From Nitrospinaceae bacterium (GTDB taxonomy: Bacteria > Nitrospinota > Nitrospinia > Nitrospinales > Nitrospinaceae), in NCBI GenBank assembly GCA_965223665.1, contig OZ245011.1, positions 2,144,001-2,208,000 of the forward strand: a stretch of DNA of 64,000 nucleotides, read 5' to 3'. The translations under genes were made by a program, and so were the position numbers. Positions 22,755-44,037 of the stretch are shown here, one piece after another (the stretch's first letter is position 1; every line of letters starts with the position of its first letter). Below the pieces are notes generated by a model, which worked only from the letters and a program-made list of their open reading frames with translations, made no database searches and was not told the DNA's origin.

Positions 22755-22889
22755 CTACTCGGCTAAATTTTCTACCTTTTCAATTTTCACCTTGCGGGAA
22801 ATCGACCCAACGTGAAAATCCACGCGAATGGAACCGGTGAACTTTTTTAACATCAGGTCGCGTATTAACTGAACCAGTTGATGAAACAT
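22755..22889 (-). CDS. Small 44-aa protein (DUF2292/YezD-like pattern)
   Basis: Not in ORF track. MFHQLVQLIRDLMLKKFTGSIRVDFHVGSISRKVKIEKVENLAE; TAATG coupling to the scaffold stop. Confidence 0.6.
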   Translation of the reverse strand: MFHQLVQLIRDLMLKKFTGSIRVDFHVGSISRKVKIEKVENLAE

Positions 22890-23629
22890 TAATAGGTGTT
22901 TCCTTTTTCGTTAGGGTAAAGGATTTCGGCGGGACTTTTCGCCTGGTTGCCCGTGCGGGAACCGGATACATATCCATCCTCGCTGAGACCTTTACCGACA
23001 CGATACAGAAAGCGAATGAACTCCGGATGGTCACCTATGCCTAACTCCTCAGACAGCACTTGCAGTTGAGACCACGGTCGGCCTCTTTCATCCACATAGG
23101 GTTTGCCATGAGGACTCATCAAGGGCTTGCCGTTTTTATCCAAGGCGGGCGGGCTGAACCGGTCCATCGCTTGCTTAGCGACTCCCAGCTTTCCCGATAA
23201 ATTATCGCCGCCGATTTCGCTATCGGCTTTGACGGTATCTATCCACTGAGTTCGCTCCTGTTCAAAAGCATGATCTTCCATTTCCATCAAACGGTCCTGG
23301 ACATTGAAAAAATAATCAACGCCCGCTTGCGTTTGCTGTTGCGTTAAGCCATAACTGTTGGCCAACTCGGAAATTTCATTAAAATGCTCCTGATTCATTT
23401 CCACCCCTTCGGGAATATTAAACGGCTCGTAATAATCGAGCGTTCCTTCTTTTCCATGAAAGTCTTCCTTCTCCCGGGGGGAATTGTCTCCGGCGGGTTG
23501 AGTGTCGCCGGTGTCGTGGCTGCCTCCATCTTCTTTGTACAAGATAGAAGCGGCCGTTTCATCACCTACCGATTGAGTGTTATTTTGTTCGGTCGGATAC
23601 AGTATTTCGGCTGTCATAAAATTCTCCAT
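22889..23629 (-). CDS. Capsid scaffolding protein
   Basis: Position between portal and capsid; LTQQQTQ, W......DSEIGG, GIGDHPEFIRFLYRVGKGLSED, C-terminal SPAEILYP. Confidence 0.8.
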   Translation of the reverse strand: MENFMTAEILYPTEQNNTQSVGDETAASILYKEDGGSHDTGDTQPAGDNSPREKEDFHGKEGTLDYYEPFNIPEGVEMNQEHFNEISELANSYGLTQQQTQAGVDYFFNVQDRLMEMEDHAFEQERTQWIDTVKADSEIGGDNLSGKLGVAKQAMDRFSPPALDKNGKPLMSPHGKPYVDERGRPWSQLQVLSEELGIGDHPEFIRFLYRVGKGLSEDGYVSGSRTGNQAKSPAEILYPNEKGNTY

Positions 23630-23909
23630 ACAATTTAAATAATTCCATCGGATCTACTTCCGAGATTTCATCTTGTATTTTCAAACCGACATTGCGCATG
23701 CCCTCGTTCAGGTACGTGGTGGAATTGCCGGTGAACGTGGTTTTGAACATGTAGCAACTTTCTAAAATTCTTAGAAGGAAGCGCCGGCCCGCAGGCAATT
23801 TCAACAGTTCCTTGATGTCTTCCTGAGCTCGGGCCTTCCGTAGCGCGGATTGTTTTTCTTCTTCCCGCCGCAGTCGTTCCCGTTCTTCCATGTAACTTTT
23901 GTTGGGCAT
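23580..23909 (-). CDS. Bbp19-like phage protein
   Basis: L....P.GRRFL..IL........TF......T..NEG.RNVGL motif directly after the portal gene. Confidence 0.8.
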   Translation of the reverse strand: MPNKSYMEERERLRREEEKQSALRKARAQEDIKELLKLPAGRRFLLRILESCYMFKTTFTGNSTTYLNEGMRNVGLKIQDEISEVDPMELFKLYGEFYDSRNTVSDRTK

Positions 23910-23910
23910 A

Positions 23911-25569
23911 CTAATTTCCGGTTAACATTTGTTTAATATCGGTCAACGCATTGGCACCTCCGGTGTCGGTCTCCGAAAGTGTCTTCGCTGCGTCGGCCGT
24001 TTCCATCATGCCCTGCATCTGCTGCATCATGGCTTGTTGTTGATCTTCTTTCTTACGAATGAGCGCGACTTGTTCATTGGCGACGATCACATGGGAAGGC
24101 ACCCCATACATATCCGCCAATTCGTCGACCAGAACATCAAAATTAACTTTGCCGGTTGCACGTGGAAAAAGCTGACTGATAGAACCCACGGAACCCAGCA
24201 AACGCTCAATCCCGTTGATGCCTACCGACTTCTGCGCCTGGGCCAACATGCCGACGAACTCAACGGTTAGATCCATGCCGGACATTTCCTGCGGAATCGG
24301 TGGGAACAAATCATTCTCCATGGCCAACTCAAAAGCGATGTCTATGAGCGGACCACCGATTTCGTTCTGCCCGCGCTCCAGCACCGGTCCCAGGATCAGC
24401 AACTTCTCGGAATGTTTTTCCTCGATTTCACGAGCCGTGACTTGACGCCGATCCGACAGCGCGATCATTTGAAACAAATCGGTAAAGAAAGTCGTTCGGA
24501 TTCGATCCCGAATATCCTGAATGTCCAGGAGGATAGGATTCAGATCAACGTTCACTTCGAACGCGGTTCGAATCCCACCTGCCGGATGGTTCTGGTCATA
24601 AAAGGTTTTACCACCGGGCAGGACATCGCTCGAATCCTTCAACGAAGAAGGTATCTGCAACGGCGGATCGGTTTTATAATCGATGGCATTGCTTTTCTTC
24701 AACTGGTCGAACTGCAACTGTTGAATACTGCCCAACGCCTGCATGCCGGGACCGTGGCCGTAAATATCCTGACCTCGGGTGACCCATCGGGGAACCAGAC
24801 CGGGAAAATTACGATACCCGCTCTCCCGCAAAAACTTGTCCTTCTCGTTGGTCTTGGCTTCATAGTGCACCGACATGAAGGGCATGTTTTTATTGTCATG
24901 CTTTTTATGATCGCGTTCTCGACGCGGCTCGATGGCATGGATCACCGTCACCCAATCGTCATAGCGACCGTTGTTGTAACGATCCTTGACGCGCTGGCTG
25001 ACGTTTTCCAATCCATATTCCTGAACCAACGCCGCCACCTGCATATCAAACTCGCGGTAGAGCGTATCCACTTCGCCGCGATTATTGTTGGCGATGTAAT
25101 ACTCTCCCACGGTTTGAGGATGGAGGCGGATGACATCTTTAAAGTCGCGTGTCACCACGGCGCTGGCGGTGCCGAACGCACCGCGCTCTTCATACATTCC
25201 ATGAAGAACGCGATACGTATTGGATCCGTTGAATATGGCCATCAAAACGTCGCGAGCCGCATCCATCCATTGACGGATGGGCCCGAACTTTGCACGATCT
25301 TTGTCCGGAGAACCCAGGCGGAACCAATTCTTTGCAGGGCTGGTTTCTCCGGCCATTTCCCCCGCAGCCAACACTCCTAACGCATGACTCGCAGTTTCAT
25401 CGATAATCTCGTTGAAGTCCCGTTTCTTGTTCCGTTCGGTGGTTAAGAACCGACCGCTCACCGGAAGAAGGTGCGAGCTGATACTGCGGTACACACTGTC
25501 GAAGGTCGACCGTTCCGTCTTCATCGATTTCAATCGTCTGTTATGGTACTCTCGTTTTGATTCTGCCAT
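23911..25569 (-). CDS. Portal (head-tail connector) protein, Bbp21/T7 gp8-like
   Basis: 552 aa; TSPAKNWFRL, VPRW.....D.YG.GPGM.ALG, TAREIEEK..EKLLILGPVLER. Confidence 0.93.
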   Translation of the reverse strand: MAESKREYHNRRLKSMKTERSTFDSVYRSISSHLLPVSGRFLTTERNKKRDFNEIIDETASHALGVLAAGEMAGETSPAKNWFRLGSPDKDRAKFGPIRQWMDAARDVLMAIFNGSNTYRVLHGMYEERGAFGTASAVVTRDFKDVIRLHPQTVGEYYIANNNRGEVDTLYREFDMQVAALVQEYGLENVSQRVKDRYNNGRYDDWVTVIHAIEPRRERDHKKHDNKNMPFMSVHYEAKTNEKDKFLRESGYRNFPGLVPRWVTRGQDIYGHGPGMQALGSIQQLQFDQLKKSNAIDYKTDPPLQIPSSLKDSSDVLPGGKTFYDQNHPAGGIRTAFEVNVDLNPILLDIQDIRDRIRTTFFTDLFQMIALSDRRQVTAREIEEKHSEKLLILGPVLERGQNEIGGPLIDIAFELAMENDLFPPIPQEMSGMDLTVEFVGMLAQAQKSVGINGIERLLGSVGSISQLFPRATGKVNFDVLVDELADMYGVPSHVIVANEQVALIRKKEDQQQAMMQQMQGMMETADAAKTLSETDTGGANALTDIKQMLTGN

Positions 25570-25772
25570 TAGGGTGCCAATATACTTTTTCCCGTATTGA
25601 GTGAACTGTCATCAATACCGGAAGTTCCGGTTAATAAAGTGGATCGTTGTCCCTTTCCGACTCTTCCGCGTCGCCTTCTTCGTAACGAAGTGCCCAACTC
25701 ACTGGAGGGAGCCTTGGCCAACTGCGGCGGAGGTGGAGGGGGAGGAGGAGGGGGAGGAGCGCCACCACACAT
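25569..25772 (-). CDS. Small Pro/Arg-rich virion assembly protein (T7 gp7.3-like position)
   Basis: MCGG, poly-Pro, RRRRRGR...STLLTG; immediately upstream of the portal gene. Confidence 0.7.
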   Translation of the reverse strand: MCGGAPPPPPPPPPPPQLAKAPSSELGTSLRRRRRGRVGKGQRSTLLTGTSGIDDSSLNTGKSILAP

Positions 25773-25776
25773 AATG

Positions 25777-26136
25777 TTATCTCCTTGATTTTAAGAGCGA
25801 GGAATCGCTCGGGTTAGTATTGGGATTATCCATCCCGGTAGGACTACTGAGTAACGTGGGCCGAGGCGTTGCCAGAGACCGGGCCCGCGCTTTACGTTTC
25901 TTTAATACGGCTTGCACATCCGGATTCGGAGTTTTATTTTGATTTTGGGTCGCACCGACAATATTTTGAAACGATGAATTATTTCCGATTTGAGGACCTC
26001 TTACCACATCGACAACGCTTTTCACCTGAGAAAACGGGTCCAAAGGCATTCCTGTTGCGCGGCTGACTTCGGAAAGCCCACCCGTGGCGATTCCTGCGCC
26101 CACTCTAAAAATTGTTCCAAACGTGCCACCACACAT
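25777..26136 (-). CDS. Small basic protein related to 25569..25772
   Basis: MCGG start, KKRKARAR...RPTLLSSPTG; AGGAGA RBS. Confidence 0.65.
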   Translation of the reverse strand: MCGGTFGTIFRVGAGIATGGLSEVSRATGMPLDPFSQVKSVVDVVRGPQIGNNSSFQNIVGATQNQNKTPNPDVQAVLKKRKARARSLATPRPTLLSSPTGMDNPNTNPSDSSLLKSRR

Positions 26137-26251
26137 AATTTTTCTCCTATGGTTTAAAAGCGTTATTGCCCCATTCGGTTTAAATTTAAGAGGATAAAAC
26201 TATTTTGAATTTACCGTTGCTTCCCGCCGCCAATTATTATAAAAAGTAGTT

Positions 26252-26731
26252 ATGAGACCGATCTTGATGACATTTGTAGTTGTTGGCTTGCTATTAGGCA
26301 GCGCCTCTTTGGGAAGTGCCGCTGATCAGAATTACATTATCGAGAACTGCGATCGCGAACAACTTTGGGCGGAAATTTTGAAGGATATTCGTTGGCGCGC
26401 CCCGGAAGAAACCAAGTTCATTGAAGAACATATTCAACCAACCAAAAATCGCCCCAAGCTGAGTGAAAAAGATTACCAAGACATCGAGAAAATGGATAAA
26501 GACATTCGCTGGTATGCCTCCGAATGCATTTTGCTAATGAAAGAAATCAATAAATTTTTGGGGGCGATTCATTCTAAAAACCCCAATATGGGTTCGCGGT
26601 TAGCCTTTACAATTGATGGGACCTTAGTTAAATTTGAAATCCCATTTGATAGATCCTTCAATCGACAAAATAACCTTAAACCTTTCTTTGAATTTAAATA
26701 TTACCTTTATATGCCTTTCGGAAAGCTTTAA
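26252..26731 (+). CDS. Secreted two-Cys immunity-like protein, copy 3 (orphan)
   Basis: Paralog family motifs; followed only by a ~25-nt remnant of an SLT gene 3' end. Confidence 0.8.
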   Translation: MRPILMTFVVVGLLLGSASLGSAADQNYIIENCDREQLWAEILKDIRWRAPEETKFIEEHIQPTKNRPKLSEKDYQDIEKMDKDIRWYASECILLMKEINKFLGAIHSKNPNMGSRLAFTIDGTLVKFEIPFDRSFNRQNNLKPFFEFKYYLYMPFGKL

Positions 26732-26808
26732 GATATTCTGCCGGGGATAAGTTATTCAGGCCTGGTTATTTAGTCTTGATTGATATCTGTGTGATATAAA
26801 ATTTGGTT

Positions 26809-27288
26809 ATGAGACCGATCTTAATTTTATTAATAGTTACCGGCTTACTTATGAGTGTGCCACAAACCGGAAACGCTGCCGATCAGAATTACATTATTGA
26901 AAACTGCGACCGGGAATGGCTTTGGGCTGAAATTTTGAAAGACATTCGCTGGCGAGCACCGGAAGAATCTAAGTTTATTGAGGAACATATTAAACCCACC
27001 AAAAATCGCCCAAAGCTTACAGAAAAGGACTTCCGGGATATCGATAAAATGGACAAAGAAATCCGTTGGTATGCCTCCGAATGTATTTTACTGATGAAAG
27101 AAATTAATGAATTTTTGGGGGCTATTCATTCTAAAAATTCCCGAATGGGATCACGATTAGCATTTACAATTGATGGCACTTTAAATAAGTACGATATTCC
27201 TTTTTTCAGGGATTTTAATAGAGAAAACAATCTAAAACCATTTTTCAATTTTAGGTATTATCTTTATAAGCCTTTCGGAAAGCTTTGA
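26809..27288 (+). CDS. Secreted two-Cys immunity-like protein, copy 4
   Basis: Very similar to copies 3, 8 and 12; 38-nt overlap with the SLT pseudogene. Confidence 0.8.
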   Translation: MRPILILLIVTGLLMSVPQTGNAADQNYIIENCDREWLWAEILKDIRWRAPEESKFIEEHIKPTKNRPKLTEKDFRDIDKMDKEIRWYASECILLMKEINEFLGAIHSKNSRMGSRLAFTIDGTLNKYDIPFFRDFNRENNLKPFFNFRYYLYKPFGKL

Positions 27289-28187
27289 GATATTCTGCCG
27301 GGGATAAATCGTTCTTATTTGGTCGTGTATTCATGAATGTAAGCTTTTAAACTTCATTAATTTTATCTCCTGCTCCCTTACCCAGAGTATTTTCGGCTTC
27401 CTCTCTCGCTTTTTCTACATCATTCGCCCCTATTTTGTACTCCAATACCATGAACCCGATCCGATCATCCACATATTTATAACGTTTCCAACCATCAAAA
27501 AATAATGCTTGTCCTGCAATGATATTGGCTTCATTTTTATCGCGAATTTCTTTGGAGGTGAAACCCGTATTTAGATTTTTGGCGATTAAATCTGCTGTTT
27601 TTTTAACTATTTGCATCAATCCGGAAGCTGTGGAATTTGGATTTTTTACTTTTTGCCTGAAACTGGATTCAATTTGAATTAACGATTTTGTGATTCGACT
27701 CGCTTCTTGAATAGGAACCGGATAACTAAATTTCTTATGAGTTTTAGCGGTAATTAAATCCCACCGAATGTTTGACCTCCTTCACCGTACCGAATTTATA
27801 ATTGGGATTAAATTTTCCCTGCTGAACGGGTGGCTGGCTCGGACCTTTCGGTGCATTGACGATGGCCTGCTGCATTGCCCAGTCCATTTGCGGGTTGCCG
27901 GTGGCCAAGGAGTCCGGACTGCCGGGTAGCGGTTTGTTGGGATCCTCGGTGTTGTATAAAATACCGGGATCAATCGATCTCTCCGAGGCTGGTAGACTTT
28001 CCTTAGCCGTGAAGTCTTGACTCAATAAAGTCGGTCTTCGATTTCTTCGTCTTCCTTTTTTAGTGCCAACCCGGCGGTCATCCTTTTTTCCGGAGCCATC
28101 TCCGTAAAGGATTTCCGCCATCTCTTCCCATCTTTCCCGCTCTTGCAGATTGGATCTGCCATATCCGCTTAAATTAATTCTTCCCAT
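27251..28187 (-). pseudogene. Short SLT effector pseudogene (near-identical to 43108..44037)
   Basis: Shared MGRINLS...AEILYG N-terminus; +1 frameshift near 27760 and nonsense codon at 27347; the 3' frame still ends KAYKDNT. Confidence 0.85.
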
Positions 28188-28258
28188 TTATTTCCTCATG
28201 TCAGCGATAATTTTTAGCCAATTCTTTAAGGTCAATTGATGTGATTGAATATTTAGTT

Positions 28259-29269: not shown

Positions 29270-29752
29270 ATGAAGCGAATCTTGTTTACATTGTTAATGG
29301 CTGTGGTTCTAATTGGTGGGATTGTGGTGGATGGTGTGCTGGCAGCCGACCGGGACTACAAAATCAAAAACTGCCAACGCACTAAAGTGTGGCCGGAGAT
29401 ATTGGATCATATTCGTTTAGGCAATCCAGAGTTAAAAGATTTTATTGAAAAAAACATCAAACCGACTCGGGAAGATCCATTATTGAGCAAGGACGACTTT
29501 CAAGAAATTGAACGGTTGGATAAAAACATTCAGTGGTATGCCGCCGAGTGTGTCCTTCTAATGAAGGAAATAAATATCTTAGTCAAAGCAGTTCATGAAG
29601 TAGATCCTGAAGAAACATTTTTTATTGCCAATCCAATTTATAGAATACTTGGAAAACTTAAAATTCCTGTTATAGTAAACTCCAAGGGAGTTAATGATCT
29701 TGCTGTTTTCTCTTTTAACTTCTCTCCTTTTTCTCCGGAAGAAACTTATTAA
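29270..29752 (+). CDS. Secreted two-Cys immunity-like protein, copy 6
   Basis: Family motifs; closest to copy 7; 38-nt convergent overlap. Confidence 0.8.
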   Translation: MKRILFTLLMAVVLIGGIVVDGVLAADRDYKIKNCQRTKVWPEILDHIRLGNPELKDFIEKNIKPTREDPLLSKDDFQEIERLDKNIQWYAAECVLLMKEINILVKAVHEVDPEETFFIANPIYRILGKLKIPVIVNSKGVNDLAVFSFNFSPFSPEETY

Positions 29753-30448
29753 CCATTTCTTTAATTTCATTTGGTATTTTTTGCAGGACCAATTCAAAGT
29801 TTATTTTTTTTCCTACATTTTGTCCATTTACATTCTTTAAAATCCGGTCCATGGGTTTTTCTCCAAGAAAAAAATTAATTAAAGCAAACCCAAAAGGATT
29901 GTCCGTATTGTTATTATATAGAGGCTTATAATATTTGGTTAACAACCAAACCGCTCCCTCGATGTTTTCGAAGTTGTTGTTGAGGATGTCTTTCTCTGAA
30001 TAGCCCAGGTCACTTTTGGTGGCGATGATCTTCGCCTGCCGTGGCGTGAGCGCCATCGGCCCACGAGGAATCTCCTTATCCCGCACTTTCCATTTCACTT
30101 CCGACCGGTCCATCGCTAACTGCTCGAACAATTTCCGCCTTTCTCGAGTGACGGGTTTCGATTGATATGAACTCCCACCCAAAGACACATCCACCGCCTC
30201 GGCCCCTGCGAAAACCCTGCTTCTATTGCTTTGAACACCGAATCGAGATCGGTATTTTTTGAAGAAGAGAAAGCAAACACGTTTTGGATCGCTTCTGAGG
30301 TTTTACTTTTCCATTTTGCCGACCCGGTTCGCGGCAGGGTATAGCGCATCTCCATTATATTTTGATAGGTGATCGATTTGCCCTGCTCCATTAATCGGAA
30401 ACCGATGGCTTCCAAACCATCCTCCGAAAGGTGCAGCCCTTCACCCAC
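29715..30448 (-). pseudogene. Orphan, frameshifted C-terminal part of an SLT-tailed ejection-like protein
   Basis: Two overlapping ORFs (30116..30448 and 29715..30194); KWKVRDKEIPRGPMALTPRQA..NIEGAVWLL aligns with the C-terminus of 31009..34293. Confidence 0.7.
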
Positions 30449-30563: not shown

Positions 30564-31046
30564 ATGAAACGAATCTTTATTACAATTATAATGGCTGTGG
30601 TTCTATACGGTGGGATTGCGGTGGAATGTGCGGTGGCGGCAGACCGGAACTACAAAATCGAAAACTGCAACCGCAAAAAAGTCTGGACGGAGGTTTTTGA
30701 TTATATTAATTGGAATAATCAGAATCTTAAAGTATTTATAGAAAAGAATATAAAACCTACCAAAGAGGATCCAAAATTAACTGAAGATGACTACAAGCAA
30801 ATTGAACAACTGGATAAAAATATTCAGTGGTTTGCATCTGAATGCGTTCTATTAATGAAGGAAATCAATGTTTTGATAAAGGCAGTACATGAAGTTGATC
30901 CAGAACAAACTTTTTATATTGCTAATATAATTGAAAAAAATCTAAATAAGGAACAAATTCCATCATTGTGGAACTCTAAAGGTGTAAATGATCTAGCGGT
31001 TTTCTCTTTTAACTTTGCTCCCTTTTCTCCGGAAAAAAATTTTTAA
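30564..31046 (+). CDS. Secreted two-Cys immunity-like protein, copy 7
   Basis: Family motifs; 38-nt convergent overlap. Confidence 0.8.
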   Translation: MKRIFITIIMAVVLYGGIAVECAVAADRNYKIENCNRKKVWTEVFDYINWNNQNLKVFIEKNIKPTKEDPKLTEDDYKQIEQLDKNIQWFASECVLLMKEINVLIKAVHEVDPEQTFYIANIIEKNLNKEQIPSLWNSKGVNDLAVFSFNFAPFSPEKNF

Positions 31047-34000
31047 TTAATCTTTTATAGTTTTCTGGTGCTGTCTCGATAACTAAATCTAGTTTTAATT
31101 TTGTTCCTTTTGCACTTCCTTCCACCTTTTTCTGAGCTTCACTCATTAATTTATCCCCAACCAAATAATGCATTAACGCAAAGCCCATTGGATTATCGGT
31201 TACATCCCTGTAAAAAAGTAAATAATAATTTACCAATAGCCACGTGGCTCCTGCAATATTTTTTCTCGGGTCCGTTAAAATATCATCTACCGAATAATTC
31301 AAACCACTTTCTTTAGCAATTATTTCAGCCTGCCTTCGTGTCAAGCCCATTACTCCCTGTGGAATTTGTTCGTCTCGGACTCCCCATTTTATACGGGAAG
31401 ATTCGTTGGCCATTTTTAAGAGTACAGTTTTCCATGGCCCAAGGTTCACTCCCGTATTGTCTTTATTGCGACTCAATCCTTCGTTGATGACTGCCGCCAC
31501 AGAATTCGCATCTCTCAAATCAAACTTGGCAGGTTGCGGCTGCGCCTTGTTTCCTCGCTGCGCGAACAGTTCCGGAGCGCGGCCTTGTTGTTTATCGCGG
31601 AGGATGTTATCGAGTAAACTTTCTACTTTCCGGACCGCCTTCTCGGAAACTTGTTTTCTTACATCCTTCAGAATCTCACTTTTACTCTGTTTCAATTGTT
31701 CTGCCGACATGCGAAAAGCGCTTTCTACCGGGAACGTTATGTTCTTCAACTGATTGCCGTCAATCATCACATAATCGTTCCGCGCAAACTTCCCCTGCTT
31801 TTCATCAAACACATCACGGAACCCGGCCCAGGCCGCTGCATCCAACTTCCCTATGATCACTTCCGAGTTCTGTTGTGTTCGTGGATCACCGGGATTCAAA
31901 TTACGCTGCTTTCCCTGCTCAATGAGCTTCTTAAGTTTCTGCGAAAATCCCTGACCGCGCACAATCCCCTGTGGAGTGTATGTTTCATCGATAACTTCGC
32001 CGATGCGCTCTCTTGCGATCACCGCTCCCGAAGGATCTTTCACCGGTTTTAAAGTTCGATCGCTGGAAAACTTTTCCAGGAACATCCGACCCAGGTTTTC
32101 CCGTGTAATCAGAATTCCCTTCCTCTTCAATTCCCTTCGCATCGCCCCCAGGGTCGGTCCCGGCAGAGAATCAATATCTCGGACTCTCACCTTTTTGTCA
32201 TCCACCCAAACATAAGCCAATGGTTTCTGTTCTTCATCTAACTCGGAATAAAATTTGCCGGGCCCTATATGGTGCAACCCCTCCAAATGCACCCGATCGT
32301 TCAGTAAACTTTCCGCAAAAAATCTCTGGTCGCTTTCCGTAAACTTTGGACCCGCTTTTCTTTTGATACGGGCAAACTCTTTTTGCAAAGTATGCTTCGC
32401 AGTATCAATCGATTCTTTAGGAACCAGGGAAATTAAAGGAACGGTTTCAAGGGAGTGTTCAAACATCTCATTGAAAGCATTTGGATCGACTGCGTTAATA
32501 ATCTGAGTCCATTCATTATAATTTTTTTCATTCAATTGAGATTTCACCCAGTCATTCAGTTGAGATTCTGTATAGTTATACTCCGATTGAATTGCAAGAG
32601 GCACAATAGTCTTCATCATATGGGCAAACCCAACCTCCTGATAATTGTCCCCAATGTCTTCCTTTTCAAGCCTCCTTGCAATTGCCTGCACCAGATTGAT
32701 TTTCTTTTGATACTGCTCCTTCACTCTTTGTCGATCCGCAACATTTTGCAGCTGACCCGGATTCTAGATCAGCCGATGGTCTTCCTGCATTCCATTTAAA
32801 AATTCTGAAAGGACCGGGTCAAATTTATTGTATTGATGAACACCGGAGCCGAAGTACAGGGAAAACTTATTCTGCAGATTCGGGTTATCCGACGTGGCCA
32901 AATCCATCAAAGGCTTATAAGCGTTTGCCTCCTTTTGCAGTTTGAGTAACAACTCATCTCTTTTCCGGTTCGCATTGTTTTGCTCAGAAGTTCCCCCTGC
33001 CGGAACAGCTCCCTGTGTAAAATCCTCCGGGTTGATTTCCGTCGACAGTGAAACCGGTTGGCCTCGGTCCACGGCCAATTCAGCATGACCGGTAGCTTCA
33101 GGGGAAAGCGGGGGTTGTGTACCTTTCAACCGGAACTCGATAATTTCTTCCAAAGCCTCTTGGGTTTCTTTACTGACGAGAGGCCATTCCGATCGCTTTT
33201 TCAAATCGGTCAACGAGGGAACTACCGGGCTTTCGGCAGCAAATTGAAACAAGGATTCCTCATTCTCGTATTTGGCGGTATATTCTTTTAACGTGTTTGT
33301 GTATTGTTGGTGATCCCTTAACTTTTCAGTCATCTTCCGTTCTTACGGATCGTCAATATTCCGGAGAGCTTCCTGTTGTTCTTCCTCCGTCAGGGACTCC
33401 AGCGCTGCCACATTGTGCTGGGCTTTATTCATCACCACCTGCTCCCGGATTCTCGCTTCGAGTGGTTCCGTATCGTTCGTTTTAAATTCTTTTTTATGCG
33501 CGGTAAAATATTCCTGCGCTTCTTCAGGTTGTTCGGATTTCAACATACTTTCAATCACCGTCAGGTTCACCCGCTCCAACACTTTTCCCTTTTCCGCAGC
33601 GACCCGTTCATCGCTCAATCCCATCGAAACCTGCAACATTTCAATGGAGCGGTTGATGACCTCAATTTCATCTTCGATCACTTGAGAATCTAAAGGATTT
33701 TTTCGAATCGATTCCAGAGAGGTGCGCGCCGTGTTCTGGTGATTTTGAATTACAGACCGTTTCCATTGCACTTCTTCATAGTCCCGCATTCCATCCAACA
33801 ACCGGGAAATTTTCTTTTCCAGAATCGGTTGGTATTCTTCGCGCAAATACTGCGGCATCTCGGCAAAACCTTTTCGTAGAGCCTGGAAATTTTCCGAGGA
33901 CGAATCCAACTGATACGTTTCCAACAGTTCCGGATCCGGGTCTGCAAAGTCTACGGGTGTTCCATCGGAAGGCTGATCCAACAAAGTTATAAATCTTTGA

Positions 34001-34293: not shown

Positions 34294-34325
34294 TAAGGTC
34301 ACCTGAGTTGAAAGTTTTATTCATT

Positions 34326-36648: not shown

Positions 36649-38139
36649 TTAACTTTGAAAAATCTTTCTATTTTTTAATGCGTTGTAGTTTCGGCGTTCG
36701 TTTTGGGAGCCGGCGGTTCCAAAGGCGGACTTTTTAAACGCTACCGGATAGGCAAAGGTGAGTGCCAACGCATCGCCACGATTCGGCGAAGCCAGCCCGC
36801 GTTCCTTCATCTGCTCTTTACTTTCCAGTTGAATTTTTCCATCGGGTCTTGGTACGGTTTCGGGTCCGATTAAATCCTGATACAACACATCATCTTTCGG
36901 AATTGCCCCGCCCTCCTGCAGCCATTTCTTAACACCGCCCCACATTTCGGCCCGCTTGTTTAAAAACCCTGCATCGTTCGCCTTCTCCCCAAACCATACC
37001 AACTGCCAGTTGCGCTGCATGGTTCTGCCGGCGCTCACTATACCTGTCCCATAACCGGCATCGACAAATACGGCATCGGCTTGAAGCTCGTCTTCCAACC
37101 GGGCAATGAGGTTGGCCACTTGAATATCGTTGTCGTTTTTGGGAATGGTCCGCAGTATTTTAAAATATAATCCCTGCCGCATGGCGATGACCAGTTCATC
37201 GTCGCCACCCCAGGCGGGATCGCAGGCAATAATCTTCGGCGCATAATTGTATTGCTCCGGTTTTAGATGCTTGCCCAGTGCCGCGTCCACCCACTCTGTT
37301 GAAATAAACTGCCTGGCCGAAACTGCGGGAAACATGCCGCGCACGCGGACTTTAACGAAATCCGAATCCTCTCCGTAATCGTCAATCCATTTTTGAATTT
37401 TGGCTTTGTTGGTGATGGCCACCTGTCGCGAGTCGATTTGATAACTTTTCCAACGGTGGCGAAAGCGTCGCCAGCATTCGCGGAAGCGCCCGGTGTTGCG
37501 AGTGGGATTTCCAAACGCGGCCCAGATCATTTCGGTATCGCTGTCGGTGAGCGCGCCTTCGGACACCTCCCAAATTGCATCGGGAATGGCCGAGCCTTCA
37601 TCAAAGATGAGAAGAATCCGTTTGCCTTTATTGTGCAAGCCGGCAAACGCCTCGCTCCGTTTCTCCGACCAGGGAATAATATCCATGCGCCAGGTCTTGG
37701 CGTGATCAGGATCCACCGAATGATAACTGGTCGCTTCCAACTGGAAGAAACTTTTGTAAGCACTGAGGCGATGCCACTTTTCCAACTCCGCCCAGGTTTT
37801 GGTCTTCAATTGATTCTCTGTATTCGCGGTGACCACGCCGCGAGTGTCCACTTTGGTGGTCATGCCCCAGTCGATGACCCACGCCACCAGTGCAGATTTC
37901 CCGACACCATGTCCCGAGGCGACAGCAATTTGGATCGCTTCACCGGGAGTGAGCAACCCGTCGCGGATTTCTTTCAGCACTTGAATTTGCCACGGTTCGG
38001 GTCCGGTGTGATCTTTCAGTTCGCCTTCACCCCACGGGTAGGCAAACAAAACGTACGCGTAAGGGTCATGTTCGAACTCGGCGATGGCATCGATGAGTTG
38101 ATCGAGCGTTTCCAGTTCCTGTTCAATCACTGCTGGCAT
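36649..38139 (-). CDS. terL: Terminase large subunit
   Basis: ASGHGVGKS Walker A, IFDEGS Walker B, FGNPTRNTGRF, DPAWGGDD, SPNRGDALALTF. Likely start MPAVIEQ at 38139. Confidence 0.95.
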   Translation of the reverse strand: MPAVIEQELETLDQLIDAIAEFEHDPYAYVLFAYPWGEGELKDHTGPEPWQIQVLKEIRDGLLTPGEAIQIAVASGHGVGKSALVAWVIDWGMTTKVDTRGVVTANTENQLKTKTWAELEKWHRLSAYKSFFQLEATSYHSVDPDHAKTWRMDIIPWSEKRSEAFAGLHNKGKRILLIFDEGSAIPDAIWEVSEGALTDSDTEMIWAAFGNPTRNTGRFRECWRRFRHRWKSYQIDSRQVAITNKAKIQKWIDDYGEDSDFVKVRVRGMFPAVSARQFISTEWVDAALGKHLKPEQYNYAPKIIACDPAWGGDDELVIAMRQGLYFKILRTIPKNDNDIQVANLIARLEDELQADAVFVDAGYGTGIVSAGRTMQRNWQLVWFGEKANDAGFLNKRAEMWGGVKKWLQEGGAIPKDDVLYQDLIGPETVPRPDGKIQLESKEQMKERGLASPNRGDALALTFAYPVAFKKSAFGTAGSQNERRNYNALKNRKIFQS

Positions 38140-38647
38140 CTTTTGCTTTCTGCAAACGTTCGGCGATGCGGTCGGCAAGGCCGTGTTTAAAATCGACTTC
38201 GTGCTTTTGCACAAACATTCCCAGGTGGTCTGCCAGAATTTTTAAGGAACGAATTTTATCGTGAAGCTTGAACTTGATGGTGCTGCCTTTGTCGTTCAAG
38301 GTGGCGTTGATTTCAGCGACAGCGGCCATTTGTTCGCGGGACAGTTTATCTTTAGCAATCATCGTCGCTTCATGCGAGTTCCAGTCTAAGTAGTCCCCAA
38401 CATTGGCAAACGCGACGTTGACCAATTCATCGAGAACGCGATCCTGTGTGATCTCCGTTCGCTGCGACAATTTGGCCTTGCCTTTTTGAATCGCTTTCTG
38501 AATTTCCGGCAATGCCATAAGCTTCCCCACGTTGGGTCCGGCAAACTTTTTGGCGTATCCGGCGCGGATGTAGGCTTGCGTGGCATTTAAATCCACCAGG
38601 TACTCTTCCACAAACCGCTCCTGCTTTAACGATAATTTTTTAGCCAC
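38123..38647 (-). CDS. terS: Terminase small subunit
   Basis: KQERFVEEYLVDLNATQAYIRAGY, IKFKLHDK...L..HLGMF. Confidence 0.93.
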   Translation of the reverse strand: MAKKLSLKQERFVEEYLVDLNATQAYIRAGYAKKFAGPNVGKLMALPEIQKAIQKGKAKLSQRTEITQDRVLDELVNVAFANVGDYLDWNSHEATMIAKDKLSREQMAAVAEINATLNDKGSTIKFKLHDKIRSLKILADHLGMFVQKHEVDFKHGLADRIAERLQKAKDASSD

Positions 38648-38685
38648 TGCTTTAACGTGAAATTGATGTGATATAATATTTAGTT

Positions 38686-39165
38686 ATGAGACGGATCTTG
38701 ATTTTATTGATAGTTTTCGGCTTACTTATGAGTGGGCCACAAATCGTAAACGCTGCCGACCAGAATTACATTATTGAAAACTGCGATCGCGAGTACCTTT
38801 GGACGGAAATTTTGAAGGATATTCGTTGGCGCGCACTGGAAGAAGCTAAGTTTATTGAGGAACACATTCAACCTACCCCAAACCGTCCAAAACTTACAGA
38901 AAAGGACTTCCGGGACATCGATAAATTGGACAAAAAAATCCGTTGGTACGCCTCCGAATGTATTTTGCTGATGAAAGAGATCAATGAATTTATGAGTGCT
39001 ATTCATTCTAAAAAACCCAATATGGGTTCTGAACTGGCATTTGAAGTTGATGGTACTTTAAACAAGTTCGACATCCCTTTTTTTAGACATTTTGATCGAG
39101 AAAATGATTTTAAACCTTTTTTCGAATTTAAGTATTATCTTTATAAGCCTTCCGGAAAGCTTTAA
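38686..39165 (+). CDS. Secreted two-Cys immunity-like protein, copy 8 (orphan)
   Basis: Near-identical to copies 4 and 12; only a short SLT 3' remnant follows. Confidence 0.8.
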   Translation: MRRILILLIVFGLLMSGPQIVNAADQNYIIENCDREYLWTEILKDIRWRALEEAKFIEEHIQPTPNRPKLTEKDFRDIDKLDKKIRWYASECILLMKEINEFMSAIHSKKPNMGSELAFEVDGTLNKFDIPFFRHFDRENDFKPFFEFKYYLYKPSGKL

Positions 39166-39198
39166 GATATTCTGCTACCTGTGATAAAATGCTTTGTT

Positions 39199-39687
39199 AT
39201 GAGACAAATCTTTTCGACAATTATGTGTTTATTTTTTTTAGTTGTCCTACCTCACATTGTCCACGCCGGAGATGGAGGTTATGATATTGAGAACTGCGAT
39301 CGGGGAAAAATTTGGCCATTAATTCTATCTGACATGAAACGCCTGGACCCTAAAACCGCAAATTATATTGATCAAAATATTCAACCCTCGAAAAAACGGC
39401 CCACCTTAACGGTGGCGGACTACAAAGAAATCGATAAATTTCCGGAACCCTATCGCAAAGATATTTCTGAATGCATTCTGCTGATGAAGGAAATCAATCA
39501 ACTGATCCTGACAATCCATAAGAAAGATACCGAAATATCAATAATAACTAGTCTTGATATTGAACAGTTCCTTGGCATGCATGAAATTCCATTTATTTAT
39601 TTATGGAATTCCCAAAAAAAACTCATCACCTTCACTTTTGATTTCACAACGGTGAAAACTTTATTGCTAGGTCGCGAAAGTTACTAG
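39199..39687 (+). CDS. Secreted two-Cys immunity-like protein, copy 9
   Basis: ENCDR..IW, SECILLMKEIN; 44-nt overlap with the SLT gene. Confidence 0.8.
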   Translation: MRQIFSTIMCLFFLVVLPHIVHAGDGGYDIENCDRGKIWPLILSDMKRLDPKTANYIDQNIQPSKKRPTLTVADYKEIDKFPEPYRKDISECILLMKEINQLILTIHKKDTEISIITSLDIEQFLGMHEIPFIYLWNSQKKLITFTFDFTTVKTLLLGRESY

Positions 39688-40681
39688 GCACCGGTTTCCC
39701 TTGCCTCACCAAATTTAAAACATACCTGAATTGCCTTAAATACTTTCTTGTTTGAAGCGGCATTTTCTTTTCTACCTTAGCAATTATCTCTTCATCTCCT
39801 TGGTTTCCTTTTATTAGGACATTTGTACGCGCCCTATTAATTGCTTCTATTCCTGCGTTATACTCCATGGCAACAAACCCTAAATAATCATCTGTGCCCT
39901 TCCACCTTCGGGCCATGTCTTTAAAAATGAGCCATTTGGCCGCTCGGACATTAGACGCAGGATCCTTAGTGATTTGAGTTTGCGTCAAATTTAACATAGC
40001 TGATTTTGTATTTACTATATCTCCCGCCGTTTTTGGCATTATCTGCATTAATTGTCTTGCCCCTTTAGAACTTGGTTGGTTATTTTTTCCAACATCGGTT
40101 TCTAAATGCGCAATAGTGATCAATATATCTCCCACATCTTTTTCAGAAAAGTCCTTGGGAATCTCCATTCCTGATTCGCCTGCAATGACACGAATCGATT
40201 TGTAGGTATTAGGAGCATAGTTTTTTACTCCTTTTTTTATATTGTTCTTAACAGTGGATGAGCTATCAAAAACTAAATTTGGTGTGTAATATTTAGAAGG
40301 ATCATATTTCGTTGCAGTCAATTTTTTAGGACTCTGGCCTTTCGGTGCGTTGACGAGGTTTTGCTGCATAGCCCAGTCCATTTGAGCGTTACCGCTGCCG
40401 AGGGCACTGGGACTTAATGGATGCGGTTTTGTATGATCCTCGGTGTTGTACAAAATACCGGGATCAATGGTCCTCTCCGATGGTGGCAGACTTCCCTCTG
40501 TGGTTAAACCTCCATTCAATAATGTTGGTCTTCGATTTCTTCGTCTTCCTCTTTGGGTGCCAACCCGGCGGTCATCCTTTTTTCCGGAGCCATCTCCGTA
40601 AAGAATTTCTGCCATCTCTTCCCATCTTTCCCGACTCGGGAGATTGGAACTACCATATCCGCTTAAATTAATTCTTCCCAT
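39644..40681 (-). CDS. Short SLT (lytic transglycosylase) effector-like protein A
   Basis: HLET...SSKGARQLMQIMPKTA...EYNAG; conserved ~110-aa N-terminus; no signal peptide. Confidence 0.85.
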   Translation of the reverse strand: MGRINLSGYGSSNLPSRERWEEMAEILYGDGSGKKDDRRVGTQRGRRRNRRPTLLNGGLTTEGSLPPSERTIDPGILYNTEDHTKPHPLSPSALGSGNAQMDWAMQQNLVNAPKGQSPKKLTATKYDPSKYYTPNLVFDSSSTVKNNIKKGVKNYAPNTYKSIRVIAGESGMEIPKDFSEKDVGDILITIAHLETDVGKNNQPSSKGARQLMQIMPKTAGDIVNTKSAMLNLTQTQITKDPASNVRAAKWLIFKDMARRWKGTDDYLGFVAMEYNAGIEAINRARTNVLIKGNQGDEEIIAKVEKKMPLQTRKYLRQFRYVLNLVRQGKPVPSNFRDLAIKFSPL

Positions 40682-40755
40682 TTTTTATCCTTGTTCTAAA
40701 AATAACTTTTTAGCCACTGCTTTAACGTGAAATTGATGTGATATAATATTTGGTT

Positions 40756-41229
40756 ATGAGACGGATCTTAATTATATTTGTAGTTGTTGGCTTATTTATA
40801 AGTGGACCACAAATCGGAAACGCTGCCGACCAGAATTACATTATTGAAAACTGCGACCGCTCTATATTGTGGCCAGCCATATTGAAAGACTTAGAAACTC
40901 GTGATCCTTCGGCATCCGATTTTGTTAAAAACAATGTTAAAATTCCAAAAGAAAAACCCAGATTGACAGCCGATGAATTAAAGCAAATTCAATATTTTGA
41001 TCCGAAATTACATTGGCATGTTTCGGAGTGCATATTGTTGATGAAAGAAATTAATCAATTTGTTTCTGCAGTACATAAGTTTGGATATTCAAGAAGTTGG
41101 GATGTATCAATGGAAATCGAAGGCACATTAAATATTTATGATATCCCTTTTATTTCCATATGGGATAAAACCAAAAAATTTGTATTCTTTGTCAATTTTT
41201 CAAAATTAAGGCCACATAAAAACTTTTAA
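40756..41229 (+). CDS. Secreted two-Cys immunity-like protein, copy 10 (orphan)
   Basis: Family motifs; its N-terminus is identical to copy 12 and its C-half is divergent. Confidence 0.8.
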   Translation: MRRILIIFVVVGLFISGPQIGNAADQNYIIENCDRSILWPAILKDLETRDPSASDFVKNNVKIPKEKPRLTADELKQIQYFDPKLHWHVSECILLMKEINQFVSAVHKFGYSRSWDVSMEIEGTLNIYDIPFISIWDKTKKFVFFVNFSKLRPHKNF

Positions 41230-41246
41230 AAATTTTCTCAATCATA

Positions 41247-41726
41247 ATGAAAACCAAACTAACTATAATTTCGTTAATTCTTATCTGTTTCTTATTTTCT
41301 GGAACCCGGTTTGGGAATGCGGCGAATCGAAATTATCGCGTTGAAAATTGCAGCCGGGCCCAACTGTGGCCGGAAATACTGAAAGATTTGAAATGGCGTG
41401 ATCCGGAAACCGCTGAGTTCATCGATAAAAATATCAAGCCTGTCCAAGAACGCCCTCAACTGACCGATGAGGACTATCAACAAATTGAACGGTTTGATAA
41501 AAGGATTCATTATTTTCTATCCGAGTGCATGCTTTTGATTAAAGAAGTAAATGTGTTGATTAAGGAGGTCCATAAAATTGATCCCAATAAAACTTGGGCG
41601 GTTGGAGATGAAATTAGAGGAACCCTAGACAAGTATGAAATTCCTTTTGATTACAAATATACAAAAAAAGATGAATTTATTTTTTATGTCATTTTTGCGC
41701 CTTTAACGCCGGGCGAAACCTTTTAA
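41247..41726 (+). CDS. Secreted two-Cys immunity-like protein, copy 11
   Basis: ENCSR..LW, SECMLLIKEVN; 38-nt overlap. Confidence 0.8.
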   Translation: MKTKLTIISLILICFLFSGTRFGNAANRNYRVENCSRAQLWPEILKDLKWRDPETAEFIDKNIKPVQERPQLTDEDYQQIERFDKRIHYFLSECMLLIKEVNVLIKEVHKIDPNKTWAVGDEIRGTLDKYEIPFDYKYTKKDEFIFYVIFAPLTPGETF

Positions 41727-42591
41727 GATAATTCTGTGTTTCCTGCGGCATAAACTGTATTACCTTATCTATTTTTTGATTTGCTCCAACTCCAAACTTA
41801 TTTACCGCTTTTCTCCTTGCCTCTTTCACCGCATTTGGGCTTGAATTATACTCAATGATCGAAAATTCTAATCGGTTATCCACTCTTGGATAGCGTCTCC
41901 AAATATCACTAAACAACAACCACTTGGTTGCCCGAATGTTTGAAGCTGAGTCATTTAAAATTTGTTGTTGCGATAAATTTAATCCGCTTTGATTGGCAAT
42001 TCCCTGGGCAGTTCCCGGCATGATCTGACCCAAGCCTTTGGCTCCCATTGGACTGGTTTGACCGGGCACAAAACTGGATTCTAATTCCACGATGGTTTTA
42101 ATAATTCGAGCTGCGTCTCTATTAGTAAACCCTGTGGGAATTTTTACATCCGGTTCACTCGTTATTATTTCAATAGATTTCTTAACCTCCTTCACCGTAC
42201 TGAATTTATAATTGGTATTAAATTTTCCCTGCTGACCGGGTTGCTTGCTTTGGCCTTTCGGGGCGTTGACCAGGTTCTGTTGAATAGCCCAGTCCATTTG
42301 AGCATTGCCACTGCCGAGGGCACTGGTGGGAAGAGGTTTATCCGGGTTCTCTGTGTTGTACAAAATACTTGGATCAATCGTCCTCTCTGAGGCTGGAAGA
42401 CTTTCCTGTGCGGTTAAACCTCCATTCAATAACATTGGTCTTCGATTTCTTCGTCTTCCTCTTTGGGTGCCAAGCCGGCGGTCATCCTTTTTTCCGGAGC
42501 CATCTCCGTAAAGAATTTCTGCCATCTCTTCCCATCTTTCCCGACTCGGGAGATTGGAACTACCATATTCACTTAAATTAATTCTTCCCAT
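41689..42591 (-). CDS. Short SLT effector-like protein B
   Basis: ELESSF.P...SPMGAKGLGQIMPGTA...EYN...PQETQNY. Confidence 0.88.
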   Translation of the reverse strand: MGRINLSEYGSSNLPSRERWEEMAEILYGDGSGKKDDRRLGTQRGRRRNRRPMLLNGGLTAQESLPASERTIDPSILYNTENPDKPLPTSALGSGNAQMDWAIQQNLVNAPKGQSKQPGQQGKFNTNYKFSTVKEVKKSIEIITSEPDVKIPTGFTNRDAARIIKTIVELESSFVPGQTSPMGAKGLGQIMPGTAQGIANQSGLNLSQQQILNDSASNIRATKWLLFSDIWRRYPRVDNRLEFSIIEYNSSPNAVKEARRKAVNKFGVGANQKIDKVIQFMPQETQNYLKRFRPALKAQK

Positions 42592-42665
42592 TTTCTATCC
42601 TTGTTCTAAAAATAACTTTTTAGCCACTGCTTTAACGTGAAATTGATGTGATATAATATTTGGTT

Positions 42666-43145
42666 ATGAGACGGATCTTAATTATATTTGTAGTTGTTGG
42701 CTTATTTATAAGTGGACCACAAATCGGAAACGCTGCCGACCAGAATTACATTATTGAAAACTGCGATCGCGAGTATCTTTGGGCTGAAATTTTGAAAGAC
42801 ATTCGCTGGCGCGCTCCGGAGGATGCTAAGTTTATTGAGGAACATATTCAACCTACCAAAAATCATCCAAAGCTGACAGAAAAGGACTACCGGGACATCG
42901 ATAAAATGGACAAAGCAATTCGTTGGTACGCCTCCGAATGCATTTTGCTGATGAAAGAAATCAATGAATTTTTGGGTGCTATTCATTCTAAGAACTCTGA
43001 TATTGCTATGGGTTTAACCTTTGAGATTGATGGAACCCTAAACAAATTTGATATACCGTTTTTCAGGCACTTTAATCGAGAAAATGAATTTAAACCTTTT
43101 TTTGAATTCATGTATTATCTTTATAAGCCTTCCGGAAAGCTTTGA
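42666..43145 (+). CDS. Secreted two-Cys immunity-like protein, copy 12
   Basis: Family motifs; 38-nt overlap. Confidence 0.8.
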   Translation: MRRILIIFVVVGLFISGPQIGNAADQNYIIENCDREYLWAEILKDIRWRAPEDAKFIEEHIQPTKNHPKLTEKDYRDIDKMDKAIRWYASECILLMKEINEFLGAIHSKNSDIAMGLTFEIDGTLNKFDIPFFRHFNRENEFKPFFEFMYYLYKPSGKL

Positions 43146-44037
43146 GATATTCTGCCGGTGATAAATCGTTCTTATTCGGTCGTGTATTCATGGATTTCAG
43201 CTTCAAGACTTCCTTAATCTTGTTTCCTGCTCCCTGACCAAATGATTTTTCAGCTTCCTTTCTCGCTTTTTTTACATCATTCGCCCCTATTTTGTACTCC
43301 AATACCAGAAACCCGATTCGATCATCCGCCTTATCATAGCGTTTCCAGCCATCAAAAAATAAAACCTGTCCGGCAATGATATTAGCTTCATTTTTATCCA
43401 AAATATCGGTTTTGGTAAAACCCGTATTTAGATTTTGGGCAATTAAACCTGCTGTCCCATCAAGTATCTGCATCAATCCGGAAGCTGTGGAGTTTGGATT
43501 TTTTACTTTTGGCCTAAAACTGGATTCAATTTGAATTAACGATTTTGTGATTCGACTCACCTCTTGAACAGGAACCGGATAACCAAATTTCTTATGGGTT
43601 TTAACGGTAATTAAATCCACCAAATGTTTGACCTCTTTCACCGTACCAAATTTATAATTGGTATTAAATTTTCCTTGCTGACCGGGTTGCTTGCTTTGGC
43701 CTTTCGGTGCGTTGACGATTGCCTGCTGCATAGCCCAGTCCATTTGCGGGTTACCGCTGCCGAGGGCGCTGGGGGGAAGAGGTTTATCCGGGTTCTCTGT
43801 GTTGTACAAAATACTTGGATCAATCGTCCTCTCTGAGGCTGGAAGACTTTCCTGTGCGGTTAAACCTCCATTCAATAATGTTGGTCTCCGATTTCTTCGT
43901 CTTCCTTTTTTAGTGCCAACCCGGCGGTCATCCTTTTTTCCGGAGTCATCTCCGTAAAGAATTTCTGCCATCTCTTCCCATCTTTCCCGACTCGGTGGAT
44001 TGGAACTACCATATTCACTTAAATTAATTCTTCCCAT
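43108..44037 (-). CDS. Short SLT effector-like protein C
   Basis: QIESSFRPKVKNPNSTASGLMQI...EYKIG. Confidence 0.85.
   Translation of the reverse strand: MGRINLSEYGSSNPPSRERWEEMAEILYGDDSGKKDDRRVGTKKGRRRNRRPTLLNGGLTAQESLPASERTIDPSILYNTENPDKPLPPSALGSGNPQMDWAMQQAIVNAPKGQSKQPGQQGKFNTNYKFGTVKEVKHLVDLITVKTHKKFGYPVPVQEVSRITKSLIQIESSFRPKVKNPNSTASGLMQILDGTAGLIAQNLNTGFTKTDILDKNEANIIAGQVLFFDGWKRYDKADDRIGFLVLEYKIGANDVKKARKEAEKSFGQGAGNKIKEVLKLKSMNTRPNKNDLSPAEYLKAFRKAYKDNT

Follow-up and report, generated by a model that had tools for sequence, protein, structure and literature searches.

Why do several SLT-domain proteins encoded among the head genes of a phage-derived element carry, inside a common N-terminal leader, the peptide with which the scaffold-like protein of the same element ends? 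This question is raised by a stretch of 64 kb from a Nitrospinaceae bacterium (contig OZ245011.1, positions 2,144,001 to 2,208,000; genome of 4.35 Mb). We refer to this whole stretch as the window and all coordinates are window positions unless another label is given. Based on Pfam and PHROG profile matches of its open reading frames (ORFs), the minus strand from ~12.4 to 47 kb encodes head and packaging genes of the BPP-1/epsilon15 podophage type. Four genes of this region share a leader of 113 residues in front of an SLT domain and are accompanied by genes for small secreted proteins. Our tentative answer, which may well prove wrong, is that the leader is a virion-loading tag on polymorphic effector/inhibitor cassettes.

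A peptide shared by the scaffold and the leaders

The scaffold-like protein, of 246 amino acids (aa), is encoded on the minus strand between the portal and capsid genes (22889..23629; phrog_458, E=2e-38). It contains TAEILYP at residues 6-12 (AEILY at 23597-23611) and AASILYK at residues 26-32 (ASILY at 23537-23551), and SPAEILYP stands close to its C-terminus at residues 233-240 (AEILY at 22916-22930). All four leaders present MAEILYGD at residues 23-30, DP[GS]ILYNTE at residues ~73-81, and the stretch GRRRNRRP[TM]LL, which places the ILY motifs at residues 24-28 and 75-78. For the 309-aa leader-SLT protein, the leader (residues 1-113) corresponds to 43699-44037, with AEILY at 43954-43968 and SILY at ~43801-43815. 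The leader carries two copies of the motif [AP][ES]ILY[GN] and the scaffold ends in the same motif. An earlier note on this DNA had quoted these strings, together with those of two pre-portal genes treated below, and we found every one of them in the gene to which it had been assigned.

A six-frame translation of the 4.35-Mb genome contained AEILY only six times, twice in the scaffold and four times in the leaders, and all six occurrences were inside the window. The shorter ILY was found 18 times in window frames of at least 60 aa, and 11 of these belonged to the scaffold and the four leader genes. The codons of the motif differ between the scaffold copies and the leader, and the repeat is therefore not a recent DNA duplication but is kept at the peptide level. 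When the leader was compared with the scaffold and with the 67-aa and 119-aa pre-portal proteins, only short local matches emerged and no global homology.

Conservation of the tail motif in related phages

The scaffold was aligned with a few database relatives and a Vibrio phage homologue, and the set was then extended to 80 IMG/VR loci (L016-L095), which provided 59 usable distinct scaffold sequences. All 59 presented a motif of the form [LMI][YF][GPDSKAN] in their last 14 residues, 1-9 residues from the end. The same tail was identified in a second family, the gp10-like proteins (PF21628, phrog_825, ~107 aa), where it takes the form A-x-x-L-Y-G in all 28 distinct sequences (e.g., L021:12417-12740, L078:4526-4858, and L013:14468-14779), and gp10 of epsilon15 itself ends with AFYPDG near its terminus. 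When we searched the 1938 unique same-strand ORFs of these loci for [LMIF]Y[GP] in the last 14 aa, 80 ORFs were found, of which 74 were scaffold or gp10-like. A third family has the motif at an internal position: of the 32 sequences of the gp16-like internal protein (phrog_1145; L021:19367-20512 and 31 related segments), 30 have [VI]LYG near residue 120, and in three loci this protein reads AAEVLYG, identical to the scaffold tail of its own phage. The flanks of the scaffold and gp10-like motifs shared 2.4 identical positions within a genome versus 1.91 across genomes, with 127 of 10000 shuffles reaching 2.4, although the 15 distinct pairs behind this test are mutually related, which overstates the signal.

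The N-termini of the scaffold homologues also contained recurrent motifs. Of the 59 sequences, 32 had an E-x-L-L-Y/H type motif within their first 15 residues and 14 had one of the T-L-M-T type within their first 30, whereas none had the T-L-M-T type at residues 31-60. The latter motif resembles the STLLTG of a pre-portal protein family, phrog_831.

In a study of epsilon15, the 111-aa gp10 was identified by proteomics in infectious particles, and its assignment to the outer "staple" density was considered probably wrong, since a 130-aa protein fits better (PMC9207676). The gp10-like proteins are thus virion proteins. Because they share their tail with the scaffold and because the place of gp10 in the virion has been doubted, they may be internal head proteins. 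Since the motif forms the tail of two virion protein families, and since phage 80alpha offers a solved precedent (see below), it is reasonable to suggest that the tail is a docking peptide common to scaffold and gp10-like proteins.

The leader and its SLT genes

Three of the leader-SLT genes, all encoded on the minus strand, are intact. Their products are a 309-aa protein with type A cargo (43108..44037; SLT domain PF01464, E=1.3e-12), a 300-aa protein with type B cargo (41689..42591; E=1.2e-11), and a 345-aa protein with type C cargo (39644..40681; E=1.3e-8), and the three PF01464 scores, given here in ascending order, are 34.8, 44.6, and 47.8 bits (curated cut-off of 21.3). The earlier note had counted four short SLT proteins. 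The leader is indeed common to four genes, but the fourth (27254..28187, minus strand, type A) is frameshifted and does not encode an intact SLT protein. Its 147-aa ORF (27744-28187) consists of the leader and 34 aa. In a tblastn comparison with the 309-aa copy, residues 1-140 were 81% identical and residues 141-309 were 82% identical in two frames, with the frameshift near residue 140 and the SLT domain running on to ~27254. The E-S/T motif of the SLT domain includes E171 of the 309-aa protein, which we take to be the catalytic glutamate; this residue was kept in at least 90% of an alignment of the 12 copies of this genome and its sister species, and the motif reads IESS, LESS, or IET in others.

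In the same 12-copy alignment, identity to the first copy was 81-93% for the leader and 44-87% for the whole protein, with a steep drop after NAPKG, in agreement with the abrupt divergence that had been described at this point. The leaders are 84-96% identical at the DNA level and the cargo is divergent. AlphaFold modeled residues 1-129 of the 309-aa protein with a predicted local distance difference test (pLDDT) score below 50 and the SLT domain confidently (residues 133-309). Short helices were placed at residues 17-27 and 74-77, over the motif regions. The leader is accordingly predicted to be intrinsically disordered. It is hydrophilic and has no signal peptide or membrane segment. The RR..TLL stretch was considered as a twin-arginine export signal and rejected by eye, as it lies at ~residue 50 with no hydrophobic core after it. 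In none of the copies did the leader region match a Pfam family, and the MuF domain (Phage_Mu_F) was therefore not found there either.

The leader had four matches in this genome and nine in the sister species, where a single copy interrupted by a stop accounts for two. Our search covered 41 genomes of the order, and no other one gave a match. No relatives beyond the two genomes were found by a word search of 5.8 billion proteins or by tblastn against 50,697 phage records, and a profile search with HMMER against 1.84 billion representatives recovered no true relatives outside them. Two additional HMMER matches (P0017 and P0019) are long tandem-repeat proteins that we judged spurious. The leader is limited to one genus and its cargo is invariably SLT. 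Both leader-bearing genomes hold the scaffold (93% identity), and the leader was found only in these two genomes with this capsid module; its occurrence in genomes lacking the module, which the earlier note had named as evidence against its proposal, was not seen.

SLT cassettes and their secreted partners

Every SLT gene that we examined has a convergent neighbor gene of ~160 aa that overlaps its 3' end, and this layout holds for the short SLT genes and for the large internal-virion-type proteins alike. These neighbors are encoded on the plus strand. A secreted two-cysteine protein, a candidate inhibitor, is convergent with the 309-aa SLT gene and overlaps its 3' end (42660..43145), and the candidate inhibitors paired with the 300-aa and 345-aa SLT genes are found at 41247..41726 and 39181..39687, respectively. 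Downstream of the frameshifted copy, two intact candidate-inhibitor genes persist (26252-26731 and 26803-27288; together 26252..27288). Among the larger SLT genes of the minus strand, a 1105-aa protein with a C-terminal SLT domain (12393-15710) is paired with 11930-12430 and a 571-aa internal-virion-like protein, also with a C-terminal SLT domain (31009-32724; PF01464, E=0.007), is paired with 30564-31046; their PF01464 scores of 17.5 and 16.4 bits are below the cut-off of 21.3. An orphan C-terminal SLT fragment (29715-30194) is paired with 29270-29752. Finally, unpaired paralogues of the candidate inhibitors are located at 38686-39165, 40750-41229, and 10666-11148.

The orphan region (29715-30448) is related to the C-terminal SLT part of the 571-aa protein and has its own paired gene. 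In the large SLT proteins, the variable part starts after a stretch of the ..NG[AE]KG type that is reminiscent of the NAPKG junction.

The neighbor proteins possess a signal peptide and two invariant cysteines, and their N-terminal half is conserved and their C-terminal half variable. There are 12 such genes per genome (window 10666-43145; loci L101-L104 of the sister genome G001), or 24 in total, and they form 18 convergent SLT/neighbor pairs across the two genomes. Six of the 24 are unpaired, and orphan SLT fragments exist as well. Across the 18 pairs, SLT-domain identity was correlated with neighbor identity (r=0.87), a value that none of 2000 permutations reached. A helical model was obtained for the partner of the 300-aa SLT gene (pLDDT of 81.5). 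This fold has no match in the PDB: Foldseek gave none at E<=0.001, and the best Z score of VIA-align (5.9) is unspecific for helical proteins. Word and profile searches recovered a family of 16 proteins, which come from the two genomes except for three on two short metagenome contigs, and the family is confined to the same lineage.

This arrangement corresponds to a polymorphic effector whose partners are matched to its variants: we found the conserved N-terminal part, the variable C-terminal domain, the sharp junction, the matched neighbor, and the orphan cassettes by which polymorphic toxins are recognized. The secreted two-cysteine neighbor is likely the cognate inhibitor.

The arginine-rich TLL stretch

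The earlier note had also related the leader stretch GRRRNRRPTLL to the two small genes that precede the portal gene on the minus strand. The stretch is present in the leader, but the 300-aa copy reads RRPMLL instead of RRPTLL. The 67-aa pre-portal protein (25569..25772; phrog_831, E=6e-9) has an arginine run followed by STLLTG (RRRRRGR..QRSTLLTG) and a C-terminal KSILAP. The 119-aa protein (25777..26136; phrog_831, E=0.23) reads KKRKARAR..PRPTLLSSPTG..SSLLKSRR, its string KKRKARAR..PRPTLLS being the one compared with the leader, and it is probably a diverged phrog_831 paralogue. Two motifs mark the phrog_831 family, a strongly conserved one of the STLLTG type and another of the KTLLGQ type at the C-terminus. 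With a profile of the STLLTG motif, the 67-aa protein ranked first in the genome (19.4 bits), and the 119-aa protein was not among the 20 genome matches above 10 bits. A search of the leader against PHROGs with E up to 10 gave no match to phrog_831 and returned only phrog_19054 (E=0.086). The pattern R[PS]TLL[STN] occurs six times in the genome, four of them in this element; RPTLL is common only to the leaders and the 119-aa protein, and the looser pattern adds two unrelated genome matches. These results divide the proposed mimicry of assembly proteins into two halves. The AEILY half corresponds to a motif present in 59 of 59 scaffold and 28 of 28 gp10-like tails, but the RPTLL half fails the phrog_831 profile.

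Both pre-portal proteins (25569-25772 and 25777-26136) and the T7 gp14-like protein (20344-20871) start with Met-Cys, a beginning that is also seen in their relatives from other phages.

A proposed virion-loading tag and its alternatives

Because the leader-SLT genes flank the terminase and adjoin the portal gene, because the leader has no export signal, and because it contains the scaffold-tail peptide, the phage head is the only delivery route to which the context points. Scaffold-type tails would dock at one site of the procapsid, either on the capsid protein or on the scaffold/core lattice, and the leader would use this same site to be built into the head. The leader-SLT enzymes would then exit together with the DNA and the proteins that are ejected, and they would cut peptidoglycan in the periplasm of the target cell, where resident inhibitors would neutralize the matching variants. 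The outcome would be superinfection exclusion or competition between strains. We infer each of these steps, from docking and encapsidation to ejection and inhibition. The way in which polymorphic toxins are transported is set by their conserved N-terminal part, as described in PMC12226406. A broader proposal is that the LY[GP] tail (~6-8 residues) is a portable head ticket of BPP-1/epsilon15-like podophages in general, carried by their scaffold and gp10-like proteins and, in some lineages, by proteins that are ejected. In the genus studied here, it would have been copied onto the disordered leader, and a phage-derived particle would thus package a polymorphic set of transglycosylases that act in the periplasm, each opposed by a secreted inhibitor of its own, as a capsid-based effector/immunity system. 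We regard this generalization as possible but rather unlikely.

To evaluate the link between leader and scaffold, we took 37 distinct tail octamers that came only from other phages, this genome and its sister being left out. The resulting profile of the LY motif was used to scan 1,259,416 positions in 3940 ORFs of the genome. The tail of the element's own scaffold ranked first (23.6 bits) and the two N-terminal copies of the scaffold ranked 8 and 9. The leader AEILY is identical to the AEILY of this scaffold tail, as expected of a scaffold-tail mimic, although its profile score is modest; the exact identity is a feature outside the profile score. Overall, the profile makes the link suggestive, not overwhelming. 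Complex prediction of the capsid protein with the leader gave a score of 0.00 in two runs in which the controls did not fold, and it counts neither way.

Several observations weigh against a loading tag. The leader MAEILYGD scored 11.7 bits (rank ~25) and 21 unrelated positions scored higher. The chance of such a match within 113 residues is ~0.002, which becomes weaker evidence given the many proteins that could have been compared. The second leader copy, PSILYN, scored below 11 bits, and no LY motif above 11 bits was found in the large internal proteins of the element. Furthermore, the motif is C-terminal in the scaffold and gp10-like families and internal in the leader, and a dedicated hidden Markov model detected no gp10-like gene in this element. 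The leader copies are so similar (81-93% identity) that the invariance of the motif columns says little. The leader was also not among the 20 genome matches above 10 bits for the STLLTG profile of phrog_831, and our homologue searches found no leader relative with the other C-terminal cargo domains that the earlier note had suggested looking for, only SLT. The co-variation of SLT domains and neighbors could be explained by linkage alone. Finally, the scaffold is identified only by where its gene lies and by weak leads to a family of T7 gp9 (PF05396). No Pfam family matched it, and phrog_458 is labeled "protease" in phage records.

Alternatively, the leader could be a recombination handle, or an unrelated trafficking module, that allows SLT/inhibitor cassettes to be swapped, and its likeness to the scaffold tail would be due to chance or be the relic of an old fragment duplication, without any part in loading the head. 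The sharp break after NAPKG between leaders of 84-96% DNA identity and divergent cargo speaks for such a handle, and the orphan cassettes, the unpaired neighbor genes, the low rank of the leader by the motif profile, and the failure of the TLL echo all fit with it; moreover, some pair of proteins in 64 kb may be expected to share a pentamer by chance. This particular pentamer, however, coincides exactly with the single conserved tail motif of the scaffold family, it is found twice as a motif in the leader and thrice in the scaffold, and AEILY is found nowhere else in 4.35 Mb. The handle is also at odds with the role of the N-terminal part in setting the transport of polymorphic toxins, as far as described in PMC12226406, given that no other signal is visible in the leader. 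On balance, we consider this explanation unlikely, yet one to be taken seriously.

Less probable still is a role of the short SLT proteins in lysis, as endolysin paralogues of the element whose leader regulates or delays their action and whose neighbors modulate lysis or protect the wall, with none of the enzymes being virion cargo. The SLT domains do match endolysin-labeled families among the PHROGs and we recognized no separate lysis cassette in the parts examined. Three intact copies and one broken copy with variant-matched secreted partners would nevertheless be unusual for endolysins, the leader has neither signal peptide nor membrane segment, and the same SLT-partner cassette ends the 1105-, 571-, and 893-aa proteins, which are of an internal-virion type that is ejected in T7-like phages. 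It is also conceivable, at a still lower probability, that LY[GP] is a processing or turnover signal of head-associated proteins, such as a cleavage site or a degron, rather than a docking peptide. The scaffold family carries protease or endoprotease labels in PHROGs and in many phage records, and T4 internal proteins lose their targeting peptide through cleavage by the prohead protease. However, no protease family was detected in the scaffold or the rest of the element, cleavage at a motif 1-9 residues from the C-terminus would remove almost nothing, and T7-type podophages, to our knowledge, mature without a protease. We retain the virion-loading tag as our tentative interpretation.

The element and its surroundings

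The remaining genes on the minus strand are consistent with the head and packaging part of a podophage-derived element. The small terminase (38123-38647; PF03592) and the large terminase (36649-38214) lie between the leader-SLT genes and the head genes, and the pair (36649..38647) was assigned from PF03592 (E=2e-33) and phrog_5902 (E=7e-67). The portal protein (23911-25569; PF12236, E=4e-152) is followed by a Bbp19-like protein (23580-23909), and the major capsid protein of the epsilon15 gp7 type (21645-22652; PF20911, E=6e-130), a candidate docking partner of the tail, by a Bbp16-like cement protein (21201-21590). Next come the T7 gp14-like protein (20344-20871), an internal virion protein of 1112 aa (16942-20280), and the 1105-aa SLT protein; the assignments in 12393..20871 rest on PF24072 (E=3e-8), phrog_418, phrog_6651, and PF01464 (E=0.003). 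No integrase or replication gene was seen among the ORFs annotated with Pfam and PHROG in the element, and the region may be either a live prophage or a domesticated particle.

According to Pfam, the flanks at 1-10.6 kb and from 56 kb contain host-type genes. The adaptor and nozzle genes are outside the window, just left of it in the genome, in a segment (G000:C1:2132082-2143023) that also encodes a GNAT protein, an 893-aa SLT protein with its partner, and a 979-aa fiber-like protein. Between this adaptor/nozzle set and the genes for head and core lie ~10.6 kb (window 1-10615) with genes of a lipid-metabolism type and a sigma-54 activator, and the gene order of the element is unlike that of epsilon15-like phages. 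Clusters of TPR-repeat proteins are present on both flanks (window 49871-54474 and G000:C1:2119865-2123175), and the left flank encodes two CBM96-domain proteins. Directly upstream of the leader-SLT genes, a 705-aa protein (44658-46775) has no family match and shows visible internal repeats; it may be a fiber or surface protein.

Relation to known systems

Capsid-targeting peptides, scaffold-tail mimicry, and phage-borne polymorphic toxins are already known. The capsid targeting sequence of T4 is a short N-terminal peptide that directs non-structural proteins into the prohead, from which they are later ejected into the host. This signal of ~10 residues forms the very start of the protein, and the prohead protease cleaves it off. 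In contrast, our leader has ~113 residues with the motif at 24-28 and 75-78, and we detected no family of prohead proteases in the ORFs that we scanned.

The closest structural precedent for a shared tail is that of phage 80alpha, where the scaffold and the CpmB protein of SaPI1 have a C-terminal helix-and-hook with an RIIK motif in common. Within the procapsid, both proteins use it to bind one and the same site on the N-arm of the HK97-fold capsid protein (PMC5644958). Compared with the system described there, the present case is similar in that several proteins (scaffold, gp10-like, and leader) share a short motif, and it differs in that the motif is LY[GP] rather than RIIK, that the leader copies are internal and doubled, that the cargo is an enzyme instead of a scaffold that determines capsid size, and that the relationship is known here from sequence. 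The MuF toxins of temperate phages, as presented in PMC5576092, are polymorphic proteins of the packaging module with a conserved N-terminal part, variable toxins, and immunity genes, and they have been proposed to be delivered by phages. Unlike these toxins as described in that text, the leader-SLT proteins have no MuF domain, they possess a disordered leader instead of a folded head-morphogenesis domain, their cargo is exclusively SLT and would act in the periplasm, and the element is of the podophage type and from a different host group.

For the secreted two-cysteine neighbors, the nearest analogue is T4 Spackle, a periplasmic protein that blocks the gp5 tail lysozyme of an incoming phage and thereby causes superinfection exclusion (PMC7677548). 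We found no sequence or fold relation to Spackle, and the neighbors comprise 12 paralogues per genome matched to enzyme variants. The pre-portal position of phrog_831 is in turn that of T7 gp6.7, which PMC11784390 describes as a small core protein that attaches to gp15 and the portal barrel by means of two short loops and is among the ejected proteins. The phrog_831 proteins have this gene position and two short conserved motifs. The leader, which reads PTLLNGG, misfits the phrog_831 profile.

What appears to be new is the LY[GP] tail in two head-protein families of a large group of podophages, its presence on a disordered leader, and the arrays of SLT/secreted-partner genes in such an element. 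The literature on related themes contained nothing on the motif or the cassette arrays, within an incomplete coverage in which the motif itself was not a search target.

Implications

Outside T4, P22, and T7, little is understood of how small or accessory proteins are sorted into the heads of podophages. If LY[GP] is a docking peptide, there would be an explanation for the way in which two proteins of a large phage family, the scaffold and the gp10-like protein, come to the capsid, and the peptide would constitute a short and testable cargo-loading tag for these capsids. If it is not, the region is still a record of SLT/secreted-protein cassettes in an unusual array that is confined to a single genus. 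Should the loading tag be true, this bacterium would encode a phage-type particle with variant-matched wall-cutting enzymes and inhibitors, which would represent a new setting for effector/immunity arms races.

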